From Escherichia phage FL20: a stretch of 64,000 nt of DNA. Below the pieces are notes generated by a model. The model did not search any database. It was not told the origin of the DNA and was given only the letters and a program-made list of their open reading frames with translations. The position numbers and the translations under genes are program-made. Positions 3,871 through 58,701 of this stretch are shown piece after piece (within the stretch, counting starts at the first letter, position 1; each line of letters opens with the position of its first letter). Where the stretch lies: the sequence record PP400781. One strand, given 5' to 3'.

Positions 3871-5469
3871 ATGAAAACTACCAAAGAACTGATGGAAAAA
3901 TGGTCCCCGCTGCTGGAGAACGAAAAACTGCCGGAAATCGCAACTGCGTCTAAGCAGAAACTGGTTGCTAAAATTCTGGAATCTCAGGAAGCGGATTTTG
4001 CTGTAGACCCGATCTATAAGGATGAAAAAGTTGTTGAAGCATTCGGTGGCTTTATCGCAGAAGCCGAAGTTGCTGGCGACCACGGTTATGACGCATCTCA
4101 GATCGCGGCTGGTCAGACTACTGGTGCAATCACTAACGTAGGTCCGGCTGTTATCGGTATGGTTCGCCGTGCTATTCCTAACCTGATCGCATTTGATATT
4201 TGTGGCGTTCAGCCGATGAGCACTCCGACTAGCCAGATCTTTGCAATCCGTTCTGTATACGGTCCAGATCCACTGGCAGGTGGCAATGCTCAGAATGTTC
4301 GTGAAGCATTCCATCCGATGTATGCGCCAGATGCTTTCCATAGCTCTCTTGCTGCTAAAGGTGCATCTGTAGGTTCTCCGACTGGGACTCCGTTTGCTAA
4401 ACTAACTATCAATACTCAGATTGAAGCAGGTGATATTGTACACCACACCTTCGCAGAAACTGGCATTGCATATCTGCAAAACGTTACCGCTGGCGCAGTA
4501 ACCCCGGCCAAATCTGGCAGCGAGTCCGAAGATGAAGTTGTCATGAAGCTGATGGAAGAAGGTAAACTGGCTGAAATCGCTTTCGGTATGGCGACTTCCA
4601 TTGCCGAAATTCAGGAAGGCTTTAACGGTTCCAGCAATAACCCGTGGGCTGAAATGTCAATGCGTATTGACAAACAGGTTGTTGAAGCGAAATCTCGCCA
4701 ACTGAAAGCCCGTTACTCTATCGAAGTTGCGCAGGATCTGCGTGCTGTACACGGTATGGATGCTGACGCTGAACTGAATGCTATCCTGGCTAACGAAGTT
4801 CTGCTGGAAATCAACCGTGAAATCGTTGACGTGATCAACTTTACCGCTCAGGTTGGTAAGACTGGTATGACTCAGACCGTTGGTTCTAAAGCTGGTGTAT
4901 TTGACCTGCAAGACCCGATCGATACTCGCGGTGCTCGTTGGGCTGGTGAATCCTTCAAATCTCTGATCTACCAGATCGACAAAGAAGCTGCTGAAATCGC
5001 TCGTCAGACTGGTCGCGGTGCTGGTAACTTTGTTATCGCTTCCCGTAACGTTGTAAACATTCTGGCTTCTGCTGATCAGGGTATCAGTCTTGCTATGCAG
5101 GGTGCTGCAAAAGGTCTGAACACCGACACCACTAAAGCTGTTTTCGCTGGTGTTCTGGCTGGTAAGTACAAAGTGTTCATCGACCAGTATGCTCGTCAAG
5201 ACTACTTCACCGTAGGTTACAAAGGCGACAACGAAATGGATGCTGGTATCTACTATGCTCCGTATGTTGCTCTGACTCCGCTGCGTGCAACTGACCCGCA
5301 GTCTTTCCACCCGGTTCTGGGCTTCAAGACTCGCTATGGCATCGGCATTAACCCGTTTGCAGACAGCAAATCCCAGGCACCGTCCGCTCGCATCACCTCC
5401 GGTATGTTGAGCAAAGACAGCGTAGGTAAAAACGCATACTTCCGTCGTGTATGGGTTAAGGGTTGCTAA
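3871..5469 (+). CDS. 23: major capsid protein
   Basis: 532 aa; strongly biased codon usage; typical gp23 sequence and position. Confidence 0.95.
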   Translation: MKTTKELMEKWSPLLENEKLPEIATASKQKLVAKILESQEADFAVDPIYKDEKVVEAFGGFIAEAEVAGDHGYDASQIAAGQTTGAITNVGPAVIGMVRRAIPNLIAFDICGVQPMSTPTSQIFAIRSVYGPDPLAGGNAQNVREAFHPMYAPDAFHSSLAAKGASVGSPTGTPFAKLTINTQIEAGDIVHHTFAETGIAYLQNVTAGAVTPAKSGSESEDEVVMKLMEEGKLAEIAFGMATSIAEIQEGFNGSSNNPWAEMSMRIDKQVVEAKSRQLKARYSIEVAQDLRAVHGMDADAELNAILANEVLLEINREIVDVINFTAQVGKTGMTQTVGSKAGVFDLQDPIDTRGARWAGESFKSLIYQIDKEAAEIARQTGRGAGNFVIASRNVVNILASADQGISLAMQGAAKGLNTDTTKAVFAGVLAGKYKVFIDQYARQDYFTVGYKGDNEMDAGIYYAPYVALTPLRATDPQSFHPVLGFKTRYGIGINPFADSKSQAPSARITSGMLSKDSVGKNAYFRRVWVKGC

Positions 5470-5599: not shown

Positions 5600-5607
5600 T
5601 ATAAATA
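5600..5607 (+). promoter_or_regulatory. T4-type late promoter TATAAATA
   Basis: Exact TATAAATA just downstream of the gene 23 terminator. Confidence 0.45.
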
Positions 5608-5968
5608 AGGTTGCAAGCCTATATTCTATTGGGAGCGAAAATAGATACACACAACAAAGACAGGAAGATGCAGAACATCGGTGGGTTGCTAGCCTAAATC
5701 CGGTGGCTATGATATGTGATTGATTTTGATGCTGGATTTATTAAAACACAACAAACAATTCCACCAATTTTCGTAGTAACTGCATGGCAAAGGGACCAAT
5801 GAATGAAATGAGCGTTCATGTTGATATTGGGTCGGATAGATTTGGTAGATATACAGATCTGGTGTATGCCGACCTTGTTATGACATTCCAGTGTGACGCT
5901 AGCGGTAATTTTTGGTTTTGGTACGCTGTTCCCCGAATTAACCCAAAATTCTCCATAAGGAGGAATGC

Positions 5969-11838: not shown

Positions 11839-11846
11839 TATAAATA
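11839..11846 (+). promoter_or_regulatory. T4-type late promoter TATAAATA (segE/uvsW)
   Basis: Exact TATAAATA 39 nt upstream of segE ATG. Confidence 0.55.
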
Positions 11847-11884
11847 TTTGTATACTGTATTTATTGCATACGGAGATTTTTACT

Positions 11885-49736: not shown

Positions 49737-50738
49737 TTACATCCCTAACAGAGCGTCAAGATCATCCAGATCAGAAGCGGAGGAAGTACCGCCACCCAGA
49801 TCCAGCGATGCCATCAGGTCATCAGCGGAAGAATCTAACGCCGTGCTAGCTGCGTTAATACCAACTACAGTGCTAGCTGCGTTAATACCAACTACAGTGC
49901 TAGCTGCGTTAATACCAGAATCGAATGCATTCATCTGTGCGTCAAAATCGTCAAGCTGGCTGTTAATCGCTGCCGCAGCACTGGAAGCCGCAGCACCAGC
50001 TACCATAGAAACGCCCATAGTTTTCTTAAATTTTGTTTCCAGTTCATCGAACGGTTTAAACTGGCTAGGCGCTACAATCTCACTCAGATCAACCATGTTT
50101 TCCATCAGATATTTCTGATATGCTTCGTCTTCAATTTTCGGAAGCTGTGATTGCTGCATGAAACGAGAATCATCATAGTTCTGGTGTTTATCAACCTTCT
50201 TAGCTTTCAGGAGGAAGTTAGCACCAGAGAACACACAAGTTACATCGACCGGAACTTCGCCCATATCGGTATTCACGTTCACCATTGCAACGATCTTATC
50301 ATAAATTTTCTGACCGAAGCGGAATTTGAATACCTTACCTTCATTTTCTGGTGCTTGAGGATCTTTCAGTACCAGAATATTTGCGTAGTAAGACGCTTTA
50401 CGCTTAATCAGTTGCCATTCGGTTTTATCGGTATTGTACAGGTCTTTTTCGTTAATATATTTGCACACAGGGCAAGAATCAAAATCACCGTGGGTGCTGG
50501 AGCAGTTTTCCCAATACCATTTGCCATTAACTTTGAAGGAATGGTTTACCAGTTTCACAATCGGCAGACCGTCTTCTGTCTTAGACGGCAGGAAGCGAAT
50601 CAGGGCTTCACCGTTACCTGCTGCATCAGTCTTAATCTTCCACTCTTTTGGATCTTCTTTGGAGAAACCGTTGCCACCTTTCAGTGCGGCCAGTTGAGCT
50701 TGCAGTTTGGAGCTATCTTGACGACGAAACATGTTCAT
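49737..50738 (-). CDS. 32: single-stranded DNA-binding protein gp32
   Basis: N-terminal KxKx-like basic region, [13 protein letters not shown], zinc ligands [16 protein letters not shown]; acidic C-terminal domain. Confidence 0.9.
49843..49916. repeat. 27-bp tandem repeat (about 2.7 copies) in gene 32 C-terminal domain
   Basis: GTGCTAGCTGCGTTAATACCAACTACA repeated; encodes GINAASTVV x2-3. Confidence 0.85.
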
Positions 50739-50798: not shown

Positions 50799-51395
50799 TT
50801 AATTGCTTGTCAATACTTTATCAATTATATCTAACAGTTTTGGCTTTCTATTTTCAAATTCTAACATCTCTTCGGGAGAAATGTCAACTACTTCTGTTTT
50901 GTTGAAAAAGTTTGGGTCTATAGCATCAGCAACAAAGTTTCTCGCAAGTGCTGCCGCTTTCTCATGAACATATATTCCCAAATATATCAACTTCTTTCTT
51001 TCGACCTGAATATTGGCAACATATTTACCATCTCGTTTATAAAGACTAACACCGATATATTCAGACGATCGACCTTTCTGTTTACCCATATTTCTTGAGT
51101 TTTGTTGCTCGTTCGCATCTCTCAAGTTTTCAATCCGATTATCTGTTATAATTCGGTTAACATGGTCAACGTATTTTGGCATGTATCCATGATGCATAAA
51201 GAAAATTATTCTATGCTCTTTATGATGTTTACCATCGATACACACCAATCTGTATCCATGACTAGGATTAACTCCACCCGCTCTAGATCCGACTTTATGC
51301 TTTCTGTTTGTCGATATCTTGCGAATCAGCTTACCGTTATCATATTTAAAGAGTTCATGACAACGAGCATACAATTCAGGATCATATGTTTTCAC
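50799..51395 (-). CDS. HNH homing endonuclease with AP2 DNA-binding domain
   Basis: HNH core GYRLVCIDGKHHKEHR...VDHVNRIITDNRIENLR; AP2-like YIGVSLYKRDGKYVANIQ; between 32 and 59 where T4 carries segG. Confidence 0.8.
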   Translation of the reverse strand: MKTYDPELYARCHELFKYDNGKLIRKISTNRKHKVGSRAGGVNPSHGYRLVCIDGKHHKEHRIIFFMHHGYMPKYVDHVNRIITDNRIENLRDANEQQNSRNMGKQKGRSSEYIGVSLYKRDGKYVANIQVERKKLIYLGIYVHEKAAALARNFVADAIDPNFFNKTEVVDISPEEMLEFENRKPKLLDIIDKVLTSN

Positions 51396-52595: not shown

Positions 52596-53192
52596 TTAAC
52601 CCTCTTTCGTCATTAATTGAAAACCACGTTCAGCTTTTGAAATTTCGCTAGGACTTAAATCGTCACCAACATATTCTAGCATCATTTCTCGGATAATGTC
52701 AAGTGCTTTTTCATCACCTGATTTTAACTCGAACTCAAGTTCATAGTGAGCATCTCCCATGACTTCGCCGACTTTGCAATAATAGAAAGTGTCTTTGCAC
52801 ATTTCCACTATAGCACCCTCAAGGTCAAGTGTCAATGACTTGAGGTATGTCATTACTTGCAACAAAGGAACTATAAGGTCGGAGTTTACGCCTAGACTAT
52901 CAACATAGTGATAGAAATCATCCATTGTTGAAAAAGTAATTTCTTCTCGGTTGAATAGTCCAGATTCACCATCACCTATTTTGATCATGATCAATGATCT
53001 ATTAACGTCAAGTCGAGCATAAATTCCTTTTCGACGCAGTGCATGATCTTCGGTATCATAATAAAATTCGTGTTTTAGAGTGTTAGCATGATCTACGATA
53101 TTGTACCCGTCATACATTGCCGCCCACAAATCACAGATGGTTTCGACGCCAATTTGTGAGTGTACATAGTATTTTAATTCAAGTTCTTTCAT
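52596..53192 (-). CDS. CYTH-like (triphosphate tunnel metalloenzyme family) protein
   Basis: N-terminal ELELKYYV (ExExK), YYDTEDHALRRKGIYARLD, C-terminal HYELEFELK; not present between dsbA and rnh in T4. Confidence 0.55.
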   Translation of the reverse strand: MKELELKYYVHSQIGVETICDLWAAMYDGYNIVDHANTLKHEFYYDTEDHALRRKGIYARLDVNRSLIMIKIGDGESGLFNREEITFSTMDDFYHYVDSLGVNSDLIVPLLQVMTYLKSLTLDLEGAIVEMCKDTFYYCKVGEVMGDAHYELEFELKSGDEKALDIIREMMLEYVGDDLSPSEISKAERGFQLMTKEG

Positions 53193-53202
53193 GTGTCAAC
53201 CC

Positions 53203-54150
53203 TTAGAACTCACCAATTTTCTGTAACATTTTAACTAACGCATTTGTTACAAAATAGTTATAAATTTTACCGCGTGGTGCTGGTTTAGATTTTTCCCATG
53301 CTAACAAAATTTCATATTCGATGTTATCGGGAATAAATTCAAAATCAATAAGTTCGCGGTTTTCGTCAAAGCGTCGTGCTTCTTCCTCTGTCATCAAAGA
53401 CTTTGGATCTTCGGCATCGAAAATTTGCTCTAACCATTTGGTTGCAATTGGTTTAGCTCGTTCTCCTTCCAGTCGTGAGATAATGAAATCACTACGGCAC
53501 TTGATCGAAGCTACACCGTCTTTTGCGTCACCCTTAACACATTTTACCATAAGGTCTTTGTAAGGGCTACCATATTTGCATTTCTTCCATGCTTTCTGTA
53601 CTGGCGCCCACTGTTTCACATTTTTGTATTTGTGCAACTGTGTGTAGTCACCATCGCCGGAGTTGATTAGCACCTGGCGACCTTCTACAGAAAACTTTTT
53701 AGTTAATACAGCGATTATGTCATCTGCTTCAACTTTGTCAACCTTAATAACGTGATAAGGCATGTTCTCTTTAAACTCTTCGGTGATCTTATTGATCGCA
53801 GCAAAGATCATCTCCCAATCACGCGGATCTGCGTCTCGTTTTTCCTTACGGTTGCGTTTATAGTAAGGGGCGATATCACGTCGCCAGTAACCTTTGCTTG
53901 AATCAAAAGCAAGTACCGTAATAGGGTATTGCTCTTTGAATTTTGTCATATTATAACGCATGGTGTCAAGAATAAGATGACGGATCATGCCTTCATTAAT
54001 AGGATCTTCCGGTTTAAAGGTATGCGAGATAGTGGCAATCATAAGCTGCGACATATCAATCAAATGCACACCTTCCGGTAGTTTATCTTCTGGATCATCG
54101 AAGAAATCATTAAGTGTAGCGGTCGTTTTTGTAAACGGGTTATACGTCAT
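53203..54150 (-). CDS. rnh: RNase H (5'-3' exonuclease, FEN family)
   Basis: GYWRRD, MPY.V...DK.EADD.IAVL.KKFS.EG, SGDGD.TQLHKY.NVKQW, PRGKIY.YFV match T4 RNase H. Confidence 0.9.
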   Translation of the reverse strand: MTYNPFTKTTATLNDFFDDPEDKLPEGVHLIDMSQLMIATISHTFKPEDPINEGMIRHLILDTMRYNMTKFKEQYPITVLAFDSSKGYWRRDIAPYYKRNRKEKRDADPRDWEMIFAAINKITEEFKENMPYHVIKVDKVEADDIIAVLTKKFSVEGRQVLINSGDGDYTQLHKYKNVKQWAPVQKAWKKCKYGSPYKDLMVKCVKGDAKDGVASIKCRSDFIISRLEGERAKPIATKWLEQIFDAEDPKSLMTEEEARRFDENRELIDFEFIPDNIEYEILLAWEKSKPAPRGKIYNYFVTNALVKMLQKIGEF

Positions 54151-54152
54151 AA

Positions 54153-54338
54153 TTAAGTTCTCTCCACTCTCACAACAACATATTCTTCAAACGAGTTAGA
54201 TACTTCACGGTCATACCCGTATTTCTCCATAACTCGCAGAATTGCATTGTTTAATTCGGCACGGAAATAATTGTAATCCTTATCAGGGATTCTGTCAACT
54301 ACCCATTTTGCACCTTCTGACAAATCAACTTTAACCAT
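54153..54338 (-). CDS. hypothetical small protein (61 aa)
   Basis: ORF coupled upstream of rnh. Confidence 0.4.
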   Translation of the reverse strand: MVKVDLSEGAKWVVDRIPDKDYNYFRAELNNAILRVMEKYGYDREVSNSFEEYVVVRVERT

Positions 54339-54344
54339 AATATA

Positions 54345-54910
54345 TCATCCTCTTTTTGGAAAATTTAAATAAGCATACTCGCCAACTCTTTCATGTGCTG
54401 CACGGTCATAAGCCTTAGCCGCCTCAACTTCTGTCTCAAAGTATCCTAGATGTATATTCTTTCGATTGATAACAATATACGCCTTCCACGGCTTTTTCTT
54501 GCTTGTTGATAATGATACACCTTTATATTTGCTATGACAAGCCTTTTTCTTTGAGACGTTAAACTGATTTTGCTGTTCTGTTGCTTCTCTCATGTTTGAC
54601 GGTCTATTGTTAGTTTTGTCTTGGTCTATGTGATCTATTAGTTCAACCTGAGTACCATACTCTAAAAACCAGACAACTCTATGTACAAATAGATTAAGTT
54701 TATGACCATTGTTATAAAATGTAAAGTATAAATATCCTTCTTTATGGAGACGTTACCCTTACCACATCACCTTTTTTGTATCTGGACCCTTCTTTTCGGA
54801 ATCCAGCAGCTACAGAATCCTTTAAATGGTATAATATTCCATCAACATGATAAAATCTACCTTTTATCGCTTTCTGTGTCTCGATATCCCAAAATTTTGT
54901 TTTTGCCACA
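54345..54910 (-). pseudogene. degraded HNH-AP2 homing endonuclease (paralog of 50799..51395)
   Basis: AP2 part intact from internal Met (YKGVSL...KPWKAYIVINRKNIHLGYF); HNH motif HRVVW...IDHIDQDKTNNRPSN in frame but without start; N-terminal part in another frame. Confidence 0.55.
54727..54734 (+). promoter_or_regulatory. T4-type late promoter TATAAATA
   Basis: Exact TATAAATA 227 nt upstream of gene 34, inside the endonuclease remnant. Confidence 0.35.
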
Positions 54911-54960
54911 ACAACACCTCACACAATAAATAATTTCATATTATAACAGGAGACCCAATA

Positions 54961-57900
54961 ATGGCAGATTTTTCTCAACATTTCAAGGCCACATTTGGCT
55001 TTGACGCTGGTAATGAAAAGGTCGTCAATGTAGCATACGCAGATAAAAACACATCAACGGATGCGGTCAACGTTGAATTTTTCAATTACCATAATGGTAT
55101 TACTCAGTATGACACAACTCGCGGTTATGATCAATACGGAACTACAATCTATCAAAACCGTCCATATTATGCAAAAGAAGATATCACAAAGCCAGCAGGT
55201 GATTTTGACCCGACTAAATGGCAAGCACTGCGCACGGACCCACGTTGGGATTATGTTGCAGCCACTTCCGGTGATACTCCTTTAAAGTCTGGTGATTATA
55301 TCGCAGCAGATGGTCAATTTGCAAACTTGACTTTCTCTATGCCAACTAAACCAGCAGAGGGAGACACTATAACAGTAAAAGATATCGGTGGCAAGTGTGG
55401 TGTTAACGAATTATCGTTCTTGAGTTCAGGACACGAGTTTTACCATAACGGTAATGTGTATAACCGAAAATGGTATTGCACTACCCCGTATGCAATGAAC
55501 TATTTCATCTTTGTTCGGAATCGTTGGCATGTTTATCAGACGGGAACAGAGCCGCGCGGTGTGTACGCACAGCCAGCGATTGATGCTATTCAAATGCAGA
55601 ATGGTGATCAGGTATTTCGTCGTAGTTCGTTGGGTAATATTACCTTAGTGCTTCCTAAGTTTGCCAACAATGGCGACATGATCCAGACTACAGACCTTGA
55701 CGGATTAACCGCAACCAACCACGTTACGGTTAAAGTTCATGAGCACGCAGAAGAACAATCAATTGGCACGTCCGGTCTAAAAGAGATTATCGGTAAGCGT
55801 AGCGGTCATGGTGTATTCATCTTTGACAAGACGGAAAACTTATGGCGTTTGTGGGATGATGATCAGTCTGTTCGTCTTAACCCGATCATCAATGACACTC
55901 GCTTGCAACCTAATAGCTATGTTGCTGTATTTGGTGGTCGTGATGTTACTCTGACGCTGCCGACCAATGTCGAGCCGGGTGATCGTATTCAAGTTTCTAT
56001 GCAGTATATGCACGGAAACCAGACTTGCCGAATCATTACCTCAGAAGAGGATACAAAAATCCTTATGCAGAAAAACATGGTTCAGTTTCCTAAGCGTAGC
56101 GAGTACCCATTCAATGGGACCGATACATGGACTGGAGTGTCTGAATTGTCTTTCAACGCTGCAAATGATTATGTACCTTATCTGGAGTTCTCTTATTCAG
56201 AAGGTGATGATGGTAAGAAATACTGGTTGGTGGCACATGCTCACCCGATTGTAGAACGAGTAGATCCGACTCGTAAAGATCGTGTTGGTGTAATTGCACT
56301 GGCTACCCAGGATGAAACAAACAAAAACCATGAAGATAATCCTAGCGACGAAGTTGCGGTGACTCCAAAGGTTCTGGCTAACAAAACAGCCAACGAAACT
56401 CGACGCGGTATTGCTCGCATTGCGACTCAAGCGGAAACGCATCAAGATACTGGTTCCAACTTCCTGGATGATGTTATCGTTACGCCTAAAAAGTTAAATG
56501 ACTGTGTTGCTACCGAAGCCCGTCGTGGTGTGATGGAAATTGCAACCCAGCACGAAACCAATGAAGGTTTAGACGATACCCGCGCTATTACTCCTAAGAA
56601 ATTAGAAGAACGTCGCGCTTCCGAAGATCTCGCTGGTATTGCTGAAATTGTTCAGGTTGGCGGTAGTGCTGCCGCTCGACGTGGCGAAGCTGGTACAGGG
56701 ATCTATAACATCAACGACCATGCTAAAATTGTTACGCCACAAAACATCAACGAAGTCAAGGCGACCGAAACTTCCCGTGGTGTTGGCTATCTGGCAACTG
56801 ACGCGGAAGTGCAAGGGGCTACAGAATCAACCCCGCAAGATGCTTTACTAATCACGACTCGCACGCTAACGAAACGTACTGCTACCGAATCTCGCACTGG
56901 TATCGCTGAAATTGCAACTCAGGAAGAAACAAACTTAGGTCAAAGTGATAACCATATCATCACGCCTAAAAAGCTGCATACTCGCCGCGCAACGGAAACT
57001 TTACACGGTTTAGCAGAAATTGCAACTCAGTCGGAATTTGACGCAGGTCTTGACGATGCTCGCATTTCTACCCCATTGAAGATTAAAACCTTCTTTGAGA
57101 ATGCACAGCGTTTGAAAGTAGATCCGACTCAGGGGCTTAACCTTACTGGTGATTTGTGGCAAGGTATCATGATCAGCGGTCTGGATGCAACCGAAGACAC
57201 AAAAGGTGTCTCTAAAGTTGCTACTACTCAGCTTACGGATGCTGGTCAAGATGATACTACAATCATCACTCCTAAAAAGCTGCAAGGCAAAAAGGCCACC
57301 GAAGGTAAAGAAGGTATTATCCGAGTTGGTACTCAAGCCGAAACCGTGGCTGGTATTATGGACAATGTAGCAATTTCTCCGAAGAACTTCAAATATGTTG
57401 TTCAGACAGAGGATACATGGAAAGCAACCGAAGCGCGTCGTGGATTCTTGAAAGTTGCTACTCAGGAAAACTGTTTTGTTGGTGATAATCTGCAAGGTTC
57501 TACTCAAGAACTAGGAAACTACCAGCATGACGGAATTGCTGTTACCCCTAAAGGATTAAACTACGCACTTGCTAATTTCTTACCTAAGATGGCAACCGCT
57601 CAGAATAGTTTGAAATTGGGTAACGTAGAGGCCGCTAAATGGGCGCGTAGAGACGTTGACCAGACCATTGAGAGCAATTACACGTTTAATAAAAAAGTTA
57701 ACGTGAAGGGCGATTTAGAGTGCTTAAAATCTGGTTCCTTTGAAACTCTGTCTGTGACTAAGAACTCAACCGATGATCCGAGTAATGGTCATCTGGTGTT
57801 GGGTGAGCGTGGAGTTGACGGTCACACCGGAATTACTCTGCATGGCACAACCGCATCGGAAGGCATGGAAAACTCATGGTCTATTATCGTTGGTGGCACT

Positions 57901-58701
57901 GGAACATCTCAAGTTGTTGATAGTAATGCTATCGCTTTCGGTAAAATCAATGATGGTGGAGTCGTCGAGCATTACGCCTTTGCTATGGAACACAATGGCG
58001 ACGCGACAGCATATAGAGACTTTATTGCAGGTCGTAACCTGTATGCGAAACAAGGCGGTTTATACATTGTTGACCAGTCTAATCCGGCAATGACTCGTTC
58101 CCCAGATGGTATGCTGAATATCGGTCACGGTGGAAGTGTTAACATCAAGGCAGGTCATCAAACGTTAACTACAGAGATCGCCGGACAGAAATATCAGATC
58201 GTCCACGCAGGAAACGCAGACGAAGTTCTTAACCGTCAGTTTGTTAAGAATGCTGGCGATACAATGGTCGGTAAGCTGACTATGGATAATGCGCCTATTG
58301 TTTCTGTTAAGCATGAAGCTAGCGCGGCAACCGCTCCGGCAATCAGCAACATCGGTTTCTGGAATATGCGCGTTACTACCCAGAACATCAAAGAAACTTA
58401 TCCAGAGAAGAAAAACGGTACTCTGATGCAATGGGGTACTGACGCGGACGGGCTTACCCAGCTTTGGTCCCCCGATGGTACTCATAAACATTATATCCGT
58501 TCCGGTACTGGTGGTCAATGGACCGCATGGGGTGAAATTTACACCAAACAGAATAAGCCTACCGCTCAGGAAATCGGGGCAGTAGTTGCAGAAGGTGGTT
58601 TAATGAACTCTATGACGGTTCGTGACTGGATCAAAGTTGGTAATGTTAAAATCATCGCCAATAATCTGACTCGTACCGTAGACTTTATCTGGGAAGACTA
58701 A
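54961..58701 (+). CDS. 34: long tail fibre proximal subunit gp34
   Basis: 1246 aa; about nine ~36-aa repeats of type ATExRRGIAEIATQxET; position after rnh. Confidence 0.9.
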   Translation: MADFSQHFKATFGFDAGNEKVVNVAYADKNTSTDAVNVEFFNYHNGITQYDTTRGYDQYGTTIYQNRPYYAKEDITKPAGDFDPTKWQALRTDPRWDYVAATSGDTPLKSGDYIAADGQFANLTFSMPTKPAEGDTITVKDIGGKCGVNELSFLSSGHEFYHNGNVYNRKWYCTTPYAMNYFIFVRNRWHVYQTGTEPRGVYAQPAIDAIQMQNGDQVFRRSSLGNITLVLPKFANNGDMIQTTDLDGLTATNHVTVKVHEHAEEQSIGTSGLKEIIGKRSGHGVFIFDKTENLWRLWDDDQSVRLNPIINDTRLQPNSYVAVFGGRDVTLTLPTNVEPGDRIQVSMQYMHGNQTCRIITSEEDTKILMQKNMVQFPKRSEYPFNGTDTWTGVSELSFNAANDYVPYLEFSYSEGDDGKKYWLVAHAHPIVERVDPTRKDRVGVIALATQDETNKNHEDNPSDEVAVTPKVLANKTANETRRGIARIATQAETHQDTGSNFLDDVIVTPKKLNDCVATEARRGVMEIATQHETNEGLDDTRAITPKKLEERRASEDLAGIAEIVQVGGSAAARRGEAGTGIYNINDHAKIVTPQNINEVKATETSRGVGYLATDAEVQGATESTPQDALLITTRTLTKRTATESRTGIAEIATQEETNLGQSDNHIITPKKLHTRRATETLHGLAEIATQSEFDAGLDDARISTPLKIKTFFENAQRLKVDPTQGLNLTGDLWQGIMISGLDATEDTKGVSKVATTQLTDAGQDDTTIITPKKLQGKKATEGKEGIIRVGTQAETVAGIMDNVAISPKNFKYVVQTEDTWKATEARRGFLKVATQENCFVGDNLQGSTQELGNYQHDGIAVTPKGLNYALANFLPKMATAQNSLKLGNVEAAKWARRDVDQTIESNYTFNKKVNVKGDLECLKSGSFETLSVTKNSTDDPSNGHLVLGERGVDGHTGITLHGTTASEGMENSWSIIVGGTGTSQVVDSNAIAFGKINDGGVVEHYAFAMEHNGDATAYRDFIAGRNLYAKQGGLYIVDQSNPAMTRSPDGMLNIGHGGSVNIKAGHQTLTTEIAGQKYQIVHAGNADEVLNRQFVKNAGDTMVGKLTMDNAPIVSVKHEASAATAPAISNIGFWNMRVTTQNIKETYPEKKNGTLMQWGTDADGLTQLWSPDGTHKHYIRSGTGGQWTAWGEIYTKQNKPTAQEIGAVVAEGGLMNSMTVRDWIKVGNVKIIANNLTRTVDFIWED

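Follow-up and report, generated by a model that had tools for sequence, protein, structure and literature searches.

The intergenic region in front of gene 34 of Escherichia phage FL20 holds, according to our analysis, a free-standing HNH-AP2 homing endonuclease gene broken by one base, with gene 34 keeping its own late promoter at 54925 and a consensus late promoter box inside the endonuclease gene being incidental; we estimate the probability of this joint reading at about 0.8. All positions refer to the window, by which we mean the whole 64,000-nucleotide stretch of record PP400781 that was analysed, and the coordinates of the features are collected in Table 1. The element is of an already known kind and bears the annotation of a homing endonuclease in relatives that are near-identical; a functional late promoter embedded in it would be an only mildly novel possibility.

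Table 1 Features of the endonuclease locus and of the late promoter boxes discussed in the text
Feature	Position	Strand	Basis
Free-standing HNH-AP2 homing endonuclease gene; 187 codons when intact, 565 nt here through one extra base	54345..54909	-	Pfam on the repaired ORF; intact 564-nt CDS at the same locus in relatives and Logan contigs
Frameshift: one of two T's is extra (sense-strand A; GTAACG instead of GTACG/GTATG)	54753..54754	-	Alignments with 7 occupied genomes and 2 Logan contigs
N-terminal fragment ORF, 55 codons: native GTG start, 52 native residues, T-S-P, stop	54742..54909	-	Same start in intact relatives and in P0001
Shine-Dalgarno GAGGTG, 5 nt upstream of the GTG start	54915..54920	-	Read from the sequence
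HNH catalytic motif (HRVVW...IDHIDQDKTNNRPSNMR), out of frame with the start codon	54588..54683	-	Pfam; family alignment
AP2 DNA-binding domain (YKGVS...WKAYI...LGYF..EAAKAYD)	54381..54533	-	Pfam AP2; PDB sequence matches; fold match
AP2-only ORF, 82 codons, from an internal ATG (Met106)	54345..54593	-	ORF list
DNA of occupied genomes absent from empty ones; replaces 12 nt (GTTTCTATCAAG) of the empty site	54358..54914		Junction comparison
Divergent patch separating the endonuclease gene from gene 34	54915..54960		12/45 mismatches with JSE; 0-1 among the occupied genomes compared
Sigma-70-like promoter candidate: -35 CTGCCA, 16-nt spacer, TG-extended -10 TATAAT	54940..54967	-	Consensus scans only
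AATAAATA, T4-type late promoter box in its A(-13) variant, 36 nt before the gene 34 ATG	54925..54932	+	Positional homology to TATAAATA of empty sites; RB49 Pl:144977
Consensus TATAAATA, antisense to Tyr-Leu-Tyr codons TAT TTA TAC, inside a gene; 234 nt upstream of the gene 34 ATG	54727..54734	+	Exact match
TATAAATA in the long gap after the 3871-5469 ORF	5600-5607	+	
Gene 34 (long tail fibre proximal subunit), downstream late gene	54961..58701	+	ORF list; annotation of relatives
61-codon ORF homologous to RB49p247, lying between rnh and the endonuclease gene	54153..54338	-	ORF list; relatives
rnh	53203-54150	-	

The comparison set consisted of 58 phage records matched by a 1-kb stretch around the feature, all of them, like the phage of the window, Krischvirus (RB49-like T4-type coliphages), with PHB13 as the best match (98.8%). 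Leftward from gene 34 the minus strand carries the endonuclease gene, the 61-codon ORF, rnh, a CYTH-domain ORF, two small ORFs and the homologues of genes 59 and 32. An earlier note on this DNA had placed the element between rnh and gene 34, which is right as to the interval, although rnh is not the direct neighbour, as the 61-codon ORF intervenes. This ORF is conserved in empty and occupied genomes alike and lies outside the mobile cassette. The endonuclease gene is the occupant of a divergent intergenic region, with the small ORF by rnh on the early strand on one side and gene 34 on the late strand on the other. An Rfam scan of 53000-56000 returned no RNA family. Further along the same strand, at the CYTH-domain ORF (52600-53200), PTE-Eco09 is 11.7% diverged from the window as compared to 1-3% in the adjoining segments, and this sharp local mosaic block suggests recombinational replacement. 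Gene 32 (minus strand) contains at 49843-49917 a perfect 27-nt tandem repeat of 2.8 copies encoding a repeated INAASTVVG in the C-terminal region of gp32, which is 333 aa long in the window and 322-324 aa in relatives.

That the minus strand at 54345-54909 encodes an HNH-AP2 protein, as had been proposed from the letters alone, was borne out by Pfam searches on the repaired ORF. HNH_3 (PF13392) was matched at residues 74-115 with 46.1 bits (E 3.8e-12; curated cut-off 24.8 bits) and AP2 with 28.9 bits (E 1.4e-6), just under its cut-off of 33.3. The residues of the HNH motif align with the DH..N..NN...N of I-HmuI, and D92, H93, N101, N105 and R107, invariant across 20 homologues, are all kept in the shifted frame of the window; relatives were found by tblastn in 2,057 phage records. 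In a PDB sequence search I-HmuI (1u3e) matched residues 44-159 (E 7.7e-5), and plant AP2/ERF proteins matched residues ~123-186 (WRI1, 2.5e-7; ERF096, 6.3e-6; AtERF1, 1.6e-5). An AlphaFold model of the protein (pLDDT 94.2) found its best PDB match again in 1u3e I-HmuI (E 3.3e-4, rmsd 2.7 A over 102 columns), and the AP2 domain of the model fits AtERF1 (1gcc) with a target-normalised TM of 0.81 and an rmsd of 1.6 A. By domain matches and fold, the protein is predicted to be a fusion of an I-HmuI-like HNH nuclease with a DNA-binding domain of the AP2 type.

Six-frame translation confirmed that the reading frame is split across two frames. The first frame reads M/VAKTKFWDIETQ...GDVVRVTSP and ends in a stop, the second reads RLHKEGYLYF...HRVVWFLEYGTQVELIDHIDQDKTNNRPSNMREATEQ...YKGVSLSTSKKKPWKAYI...LNFPKRG up to its own stop, and the two joined give a protein of 187 residues. 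Where the intact sense strand has GTG GTA AGG GTA CGT CTC CAT AAA, the window has GTG GTA AGG GTA ACG TCT CCA TAA, and deletion of either T, 54753 or 54754, restores the frame. In this genome the single-base insertion after codon 52 would end translation at codon 55, so that the HNH core and the AP2 domain would not be made, the frame through the catalytic domain being interrupted. On the structural model the frameshift falls between a small N-terminal module (helix and beta hairpin) and the strands preceding the HNH motif, and since it precedes the HNH strands the 55-residue product is expected to contain nothing catalytic. The statement that a start codon survives only for the AP2 part has to be corrected on this point: the N-terminal fragment retains the native GTG together with GAGGTG, and it is the HNH core (residues ~53-105) that is left without a start.

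The same holds for the description of the gene as decayed, which overstates the damage, because there is one lesion only and the gene is nearly identical to intact alleles. A protein search led to P0001, whose gene occupies this locus on Logan contigs and whose 187 residues show 99% identity with the repaired window protein; exactly one 1-nt insertion was found, and its removal restores a product that differs from P0001 at one E/D position. At the DNA level the window gene differs from the Logan contigs by three substitutions and the extra base. Two of the substitutions are synonymous, and the third is the E/D position, at which the window has the residue of the other haplotype described below. 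Instead of several disabling lesions or an excess of non-synonymous change, we found one frameshift and window-specific substitutions that are synonymous. Apart from this one +1 insertion the gene is pristine; it reads as freshly broken and not as a decayed remnant, and to judge from its sequence it is a dead or very recently killed passenger. On the opposite strand a 61-codon ORF (54744-54929, plus) starts 10 nt after the embedded TATAAATA, antisense to the N-terminus of the endonuclease; it is lengthened by the frameshift, as in intact alleles it would stop after about 26 codons (worked out by hand), and it is probably meaningless.

Six relatives carry an intact 564-nt CDS at the same locus: PTE-Eco09, ELT4, FL15, G37-3, pEJ01 and KFS-EC. 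In PTE-Eco09 (XUY70959.1), ELT4 (UNY41502.1) and FL15 (XAO14301.1) it is annotated as 'homing endonuclease', in G37-3 and pEJ01 as an unnamed CDS. These five share with the window the insertion site, the flanking patch, about 98% DNA identity, the GTG start and the stop, but have 187 intact codons and belong to a second haplotype, which is separated by 4 synonymous and 6 non-synonymous changes from P0001, the allele that represents the window's haplotype in intact form in Logan. Intact copies of the window's own haplotype exist in the Logan assemblies. The copy of KFS-EC (L004) is an intact but unannotated ORF with the ribosome-binding site GTGGTG in place of the GAGGTG found at window 54915-54920, a possible third route to silencing. 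The closest relative, PHB13, has the window's haplotype and a truncated 'homing endonuclease' (QBQ74273.1) that is also frameshifted within the same 25-nt stretch, by a +1 change from A6 to A7 in Lys-Lys codons, about 20 nt upstream of the GTACG to GTAACG change of the window. As the two lesions differ, they must be independent events or independent errors. An exact-pattern scan of IMG/VR for a pattern common to all alleles found none, nor did the corresponding scan of JGI metagenome contigs.

In either the window or PHB13 the frameshift may be a true mutation or a sequencing error, and the view that the window's extra base arose in sequencing or assembly, the phage itself carrying an intact and functional endonuclease gene, is rather unlikely but has to be weighed seriously. 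It would account for a lone lesion in an otherwise flawless ORF, which apart from it departs from the intact Logan allele by two synonymous changes. The extra base lengthens a short run by turning a sense-strand A into AA, and an exact-pattern scan of IMG/VR for the frameshifted allele found none. The insertion site is, however, a dinucleotide and not a long homopolymer, and the separate frameshift of PHB13 in the same haplotype indicates that inactive alleles may circulate, even if its A7 run could equally be an error. It is hardly credible that the split is functional, either through programmed frameshifting that yields low-level full-length enzyme or through the internal ATG, giving a domesticated, nuclease-free AP2 DNA-binding protein. 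An AP2-only ORF with an ATG does exist, and transcriptional slippage is conceivable on the A7 run of the PHB13 allele, but the ATG at 54593 is preceded by no recognisable Shine-Dalgarno sequence (upstream sequence AGACCGTCAAAC). Programmed frameshifting was rejected, as no slippery sequence occurs between the insertion and the stop (ACG TCT CCA TAA) and the gene is in one frame in the six relatives and the Logan contigs.

Evidence for mobility comes from the distribution of the gene, which is present in 8 of the 58 Krischvirus records (seven distinct phages, KFS-EC being listed twice) and absent from 50, the locus being otherwise collinear. All 50 empty records have a contiguous site with at least 97.2% identity to the JSE-type intergenic region. 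The junctions are sharp, and the last four codons of the endonuclease gene together with its stop lie in sequence that empty sites also have, where they overlap the ribosome-binding site belonging to the 61-codon ORF. Such presence/absence polymorphism at a fixed intergenic site is what characterises a mobile free-standing endonuclease. The patch at 54915-54960, divergent from JSE and near-invariant among the occupied genomes compared, is strictly linked to the gene and travels with it; it could be co-converted donor sequence, a means of target-site immunity, or both. Compared with PHB13 and Logan, the window allele diverges by 0.5% in the endonuclease gene and by 2-3% in the flanks, and compared with PTE-Eco09 and G37-3 by 1.9% and ~2%, respectively, the flanks being mosaic. 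These figures are mixed, and we do not claim a very recent spread of the cassette: there is no sign of one, as the occupied alleles diverge about as much as the mosaic flanks do.

A second gene of the family, at 50799-51395 on the minus strand, had been named as an intact paralogue of the studied one. The two are indeed related (BLASTP E 4e-17), but the relationship is distant, extending over the HNH/AP2 core with 40% identity over 92 aa. This gene lies between genes 32 and 59 and is itself a polymorphic insertion, found in 11 of 58 Krischvirus records and absent, for example, from PHB13, PTE-Eco09, G37-3, JSE and Phi1; it fills the same 32/59 gap as segG does in T4 (PMC2988022 Table 1). Both endonuclease genes occur together only in ELT4 and pEJ01 among the records listed. 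Other Krischvirus contigs (L017-L019, 4001-4576) have a third HNH-AP2 gene (P0005, 51% identical), with rnh on one side and the CYTH-domain ORF on the other, and because of this gene and the other insertions there the segment from gene 32 to gene 34 can be regarded as a hot spot for the HNH-AP2 family.

The empty-site genomes (RB49, JSE, Phi1 and others) have a 74-nt intergenic region in which TATAAATA precedes the gene 34 ATG by 36 nt. The RB49 copy of this box (145003-145010) falls within Pl:144977, which Nolan et al. predicted to be a late promoter (PMC1524935 Additional file 5). In all occupied genomes the homologue of this box is AATAAATA. Replacement of T by A at -13 is the commonest deviation from the consensus, found at 9 of the 50 listed T4 late promoter sites (PMC2988020), and it is also common in late promoters of RB49 (PMC1524935). 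At 54925 the box (with A(-13) allowed), its placement and its homology to a described promoter are all in agreement, and the distance to the ATG matches that of the window's other late promoters. The box at 54925-54932 is likely to be the late promoter of gene 34, as predicted from these features, and as A(-13) is common among T4-type late promoters it is probably still functional, so that gene 34 would most likely still be transcribed from it. The right edge of the insertion is 8 nt from this box, which supports the idea that the endonuclease gene landed beside the gene 34 late promoter; what has to be changed in the earlier proposal is the identity of the promoter, which is the box that adjoins the inactivated gene and not the one at 54727. 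A further A(-13) box in promoter-like geometry was noticed at 11839-11872, where two late-promoter-like boxes stand back to back, a plus-strand TATAAATA at 11839 and a minus-strand AATAAATA at 11865, and each precedes the start of a divergent gene by about 45 nt.

For the endonuclease gene itself, the sigma-70-like candidate listed in Table 1 has its -10 at 54940-54948 and a -35 that overlaps the start of gene 34. At the position of the candidate -10 the empty site reads TATAGT without TG. The empty site also has, by consensus scan, a second promoter-like site whose -35 TTGATA lies within the 12 nt replaced by the insertion. The published RB49 predictions list no early promoter in the empty site; only late promoters are given there, on both strands. 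The candidate promoters seen here would fit a pattern in which cassettes rebuild the local promoter architecture and keep the neighbours expressed.

The plus-strand TATAAATA that had been reported inside the gene is there as an exact match. It is one of nine such motifs in the window, seven of which are followed after 28-46 nt by an ATG on the same strand that has a ribosome-binding site, while one lies in the long gap at 5600 and one, at 54727, inside a gene. A total of nine does not amount to an enrichment, as 5.5 +/- 2.7 are expected and 15 of 100 shuffles gave at least 9. No start codon occurs within 50 nt of the box at 5600-5607 (the nearest plausible ORF begins at 5784), and by spacing this box has an apparent RB49 counterpart among the published predicted late promoters. 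Comparison by eye of the flanks of the 54727 box with those of the other TATAAATA sites in the window revealed nothing conserved outside the box.

It is most likely that the internal box is an incidental by-product of coding sequence, created by the Tyr-Leu-Tyr codons on the other strand, although it is possibly an auxiliary late promoter. The stronger proposal, that it is a working late promoter inside the endonuclease gene which adds to or replaces the transcription of gene 34, we regard as unlikely. A working box at 54727 would give rise to RNA that runs antisense through the first 180 nt (the first third) of the endonuclease gene and on into gene 34, and it would make a dead cassette hard to delete, in the manner of the gene 32 promoters in T4 segG. 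Several observations speak for it. The box is a perfect consensus on the strand of gene 34 and no terminator is predicted between the two; late promoters need essentially only the 8-bp box (PMC2988020), and T4 offers documented cases of promoters lying within free-standing endonuclease genes, namely segG and other seg and mob genes (PMC2988022). The proximal box changed from TATAAATA to the weaker-looking AATAAATA with the insertion, the 54727 motif is kept in all 8 occupied records, and the box at 5600 is also far from a start codon, yet its apparent RB49 equivalent is a predicted late promoter. Conservation of the motif is, however, uninformative at 98% identity. An antisense TATAAATA arises in about 13% of random synonymous recodings of this protein with phage codon usage (the probability from composition alone being about 0.03), and neither three homologous genes nor the paralogue contain one. 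The distance of 234 nt to the ATG is far outside the 28-46 nt observed for seven of the other eight boxes, and with A(-13) being common and used in both T4 and RB49 there is no need for compensation.

An extended version of this proposal, which we consider quite improbable, would have the insertion downgrade the gene 34 promoter from TATAAATA to AATAAATA and at the same time bring in the embedded TATAAATA, now driving substantial late transcription of gene 34 along with antisense RNA. Point inactivation of the nuclease would then be tolerated (two independent frameshifts within 25 nt) and the DNA would be undeletable, a promoter 'addiction' preserving dead endonuclease genes.

By analogy with the family, from which its target site and mobility are deduced, an intact enzyme would nick or cut endonuclease-free genomes near the locus during mixed infection, and recombinational repair would then copy the gene and the adjacent 45-nt patch into the cut genome. 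As regards annotation, the gene should be labelled as a frameshifted HNH-AP2 homing endonuclease pseudogene, or else rechecked for a sequencing error, and the gene 34 late promoter belongs at 54925-54932. The locus offers a natural example of a free-standing endonuclease cassette slotted into a divergent T4-type promoter region with both neighbours presumably kept expressed, and two independent null alleles can now be compared with intact ones. Were the embedded TATAAATA active, it would add another case of host promoters residing inside selfish endonuclease genes.

I-HmuI, the HNH homing endonuclease of Bacillus phage SPO1, aligns with the protein described here in the N-terminal beta region and the HNH motif, both in sequence and in fold. 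I-HmuI is intron-encoded and its C-terminal DNA-binding domain is a helix-turn-helix, whereas the window gene is free-standing and its C-terminal domain is AP2. The AP2-HNH class of phage endonucleases was described by Magnani et al. 2004, as cited in PMC1524935, with ORF040c as its RB49 member; a paper of 2006 (PMC1524935) recognised it as a mobile-element class present in RB49 and RB43, as did one of 2010 (PMC2839356), and we found no mapped target for these enzymes in the literature. The RB49 class shares with the window gene the two-domain architecture and the phage genus, but RB49 is without the copy studied here, its rnh-34 site being empty. In T4, segG (between genes 32 and 59) and mobE, an HNH example, are likewise intergenic insertions beside essential genes with host promoters rearranged around them (PMC2988022). 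The difference is that in segG the gene 32 promoters have been mapped inside the endonuclease gene, whereas here the internal box is only predicted and the proximal box of gene 34 survives outside the gene.
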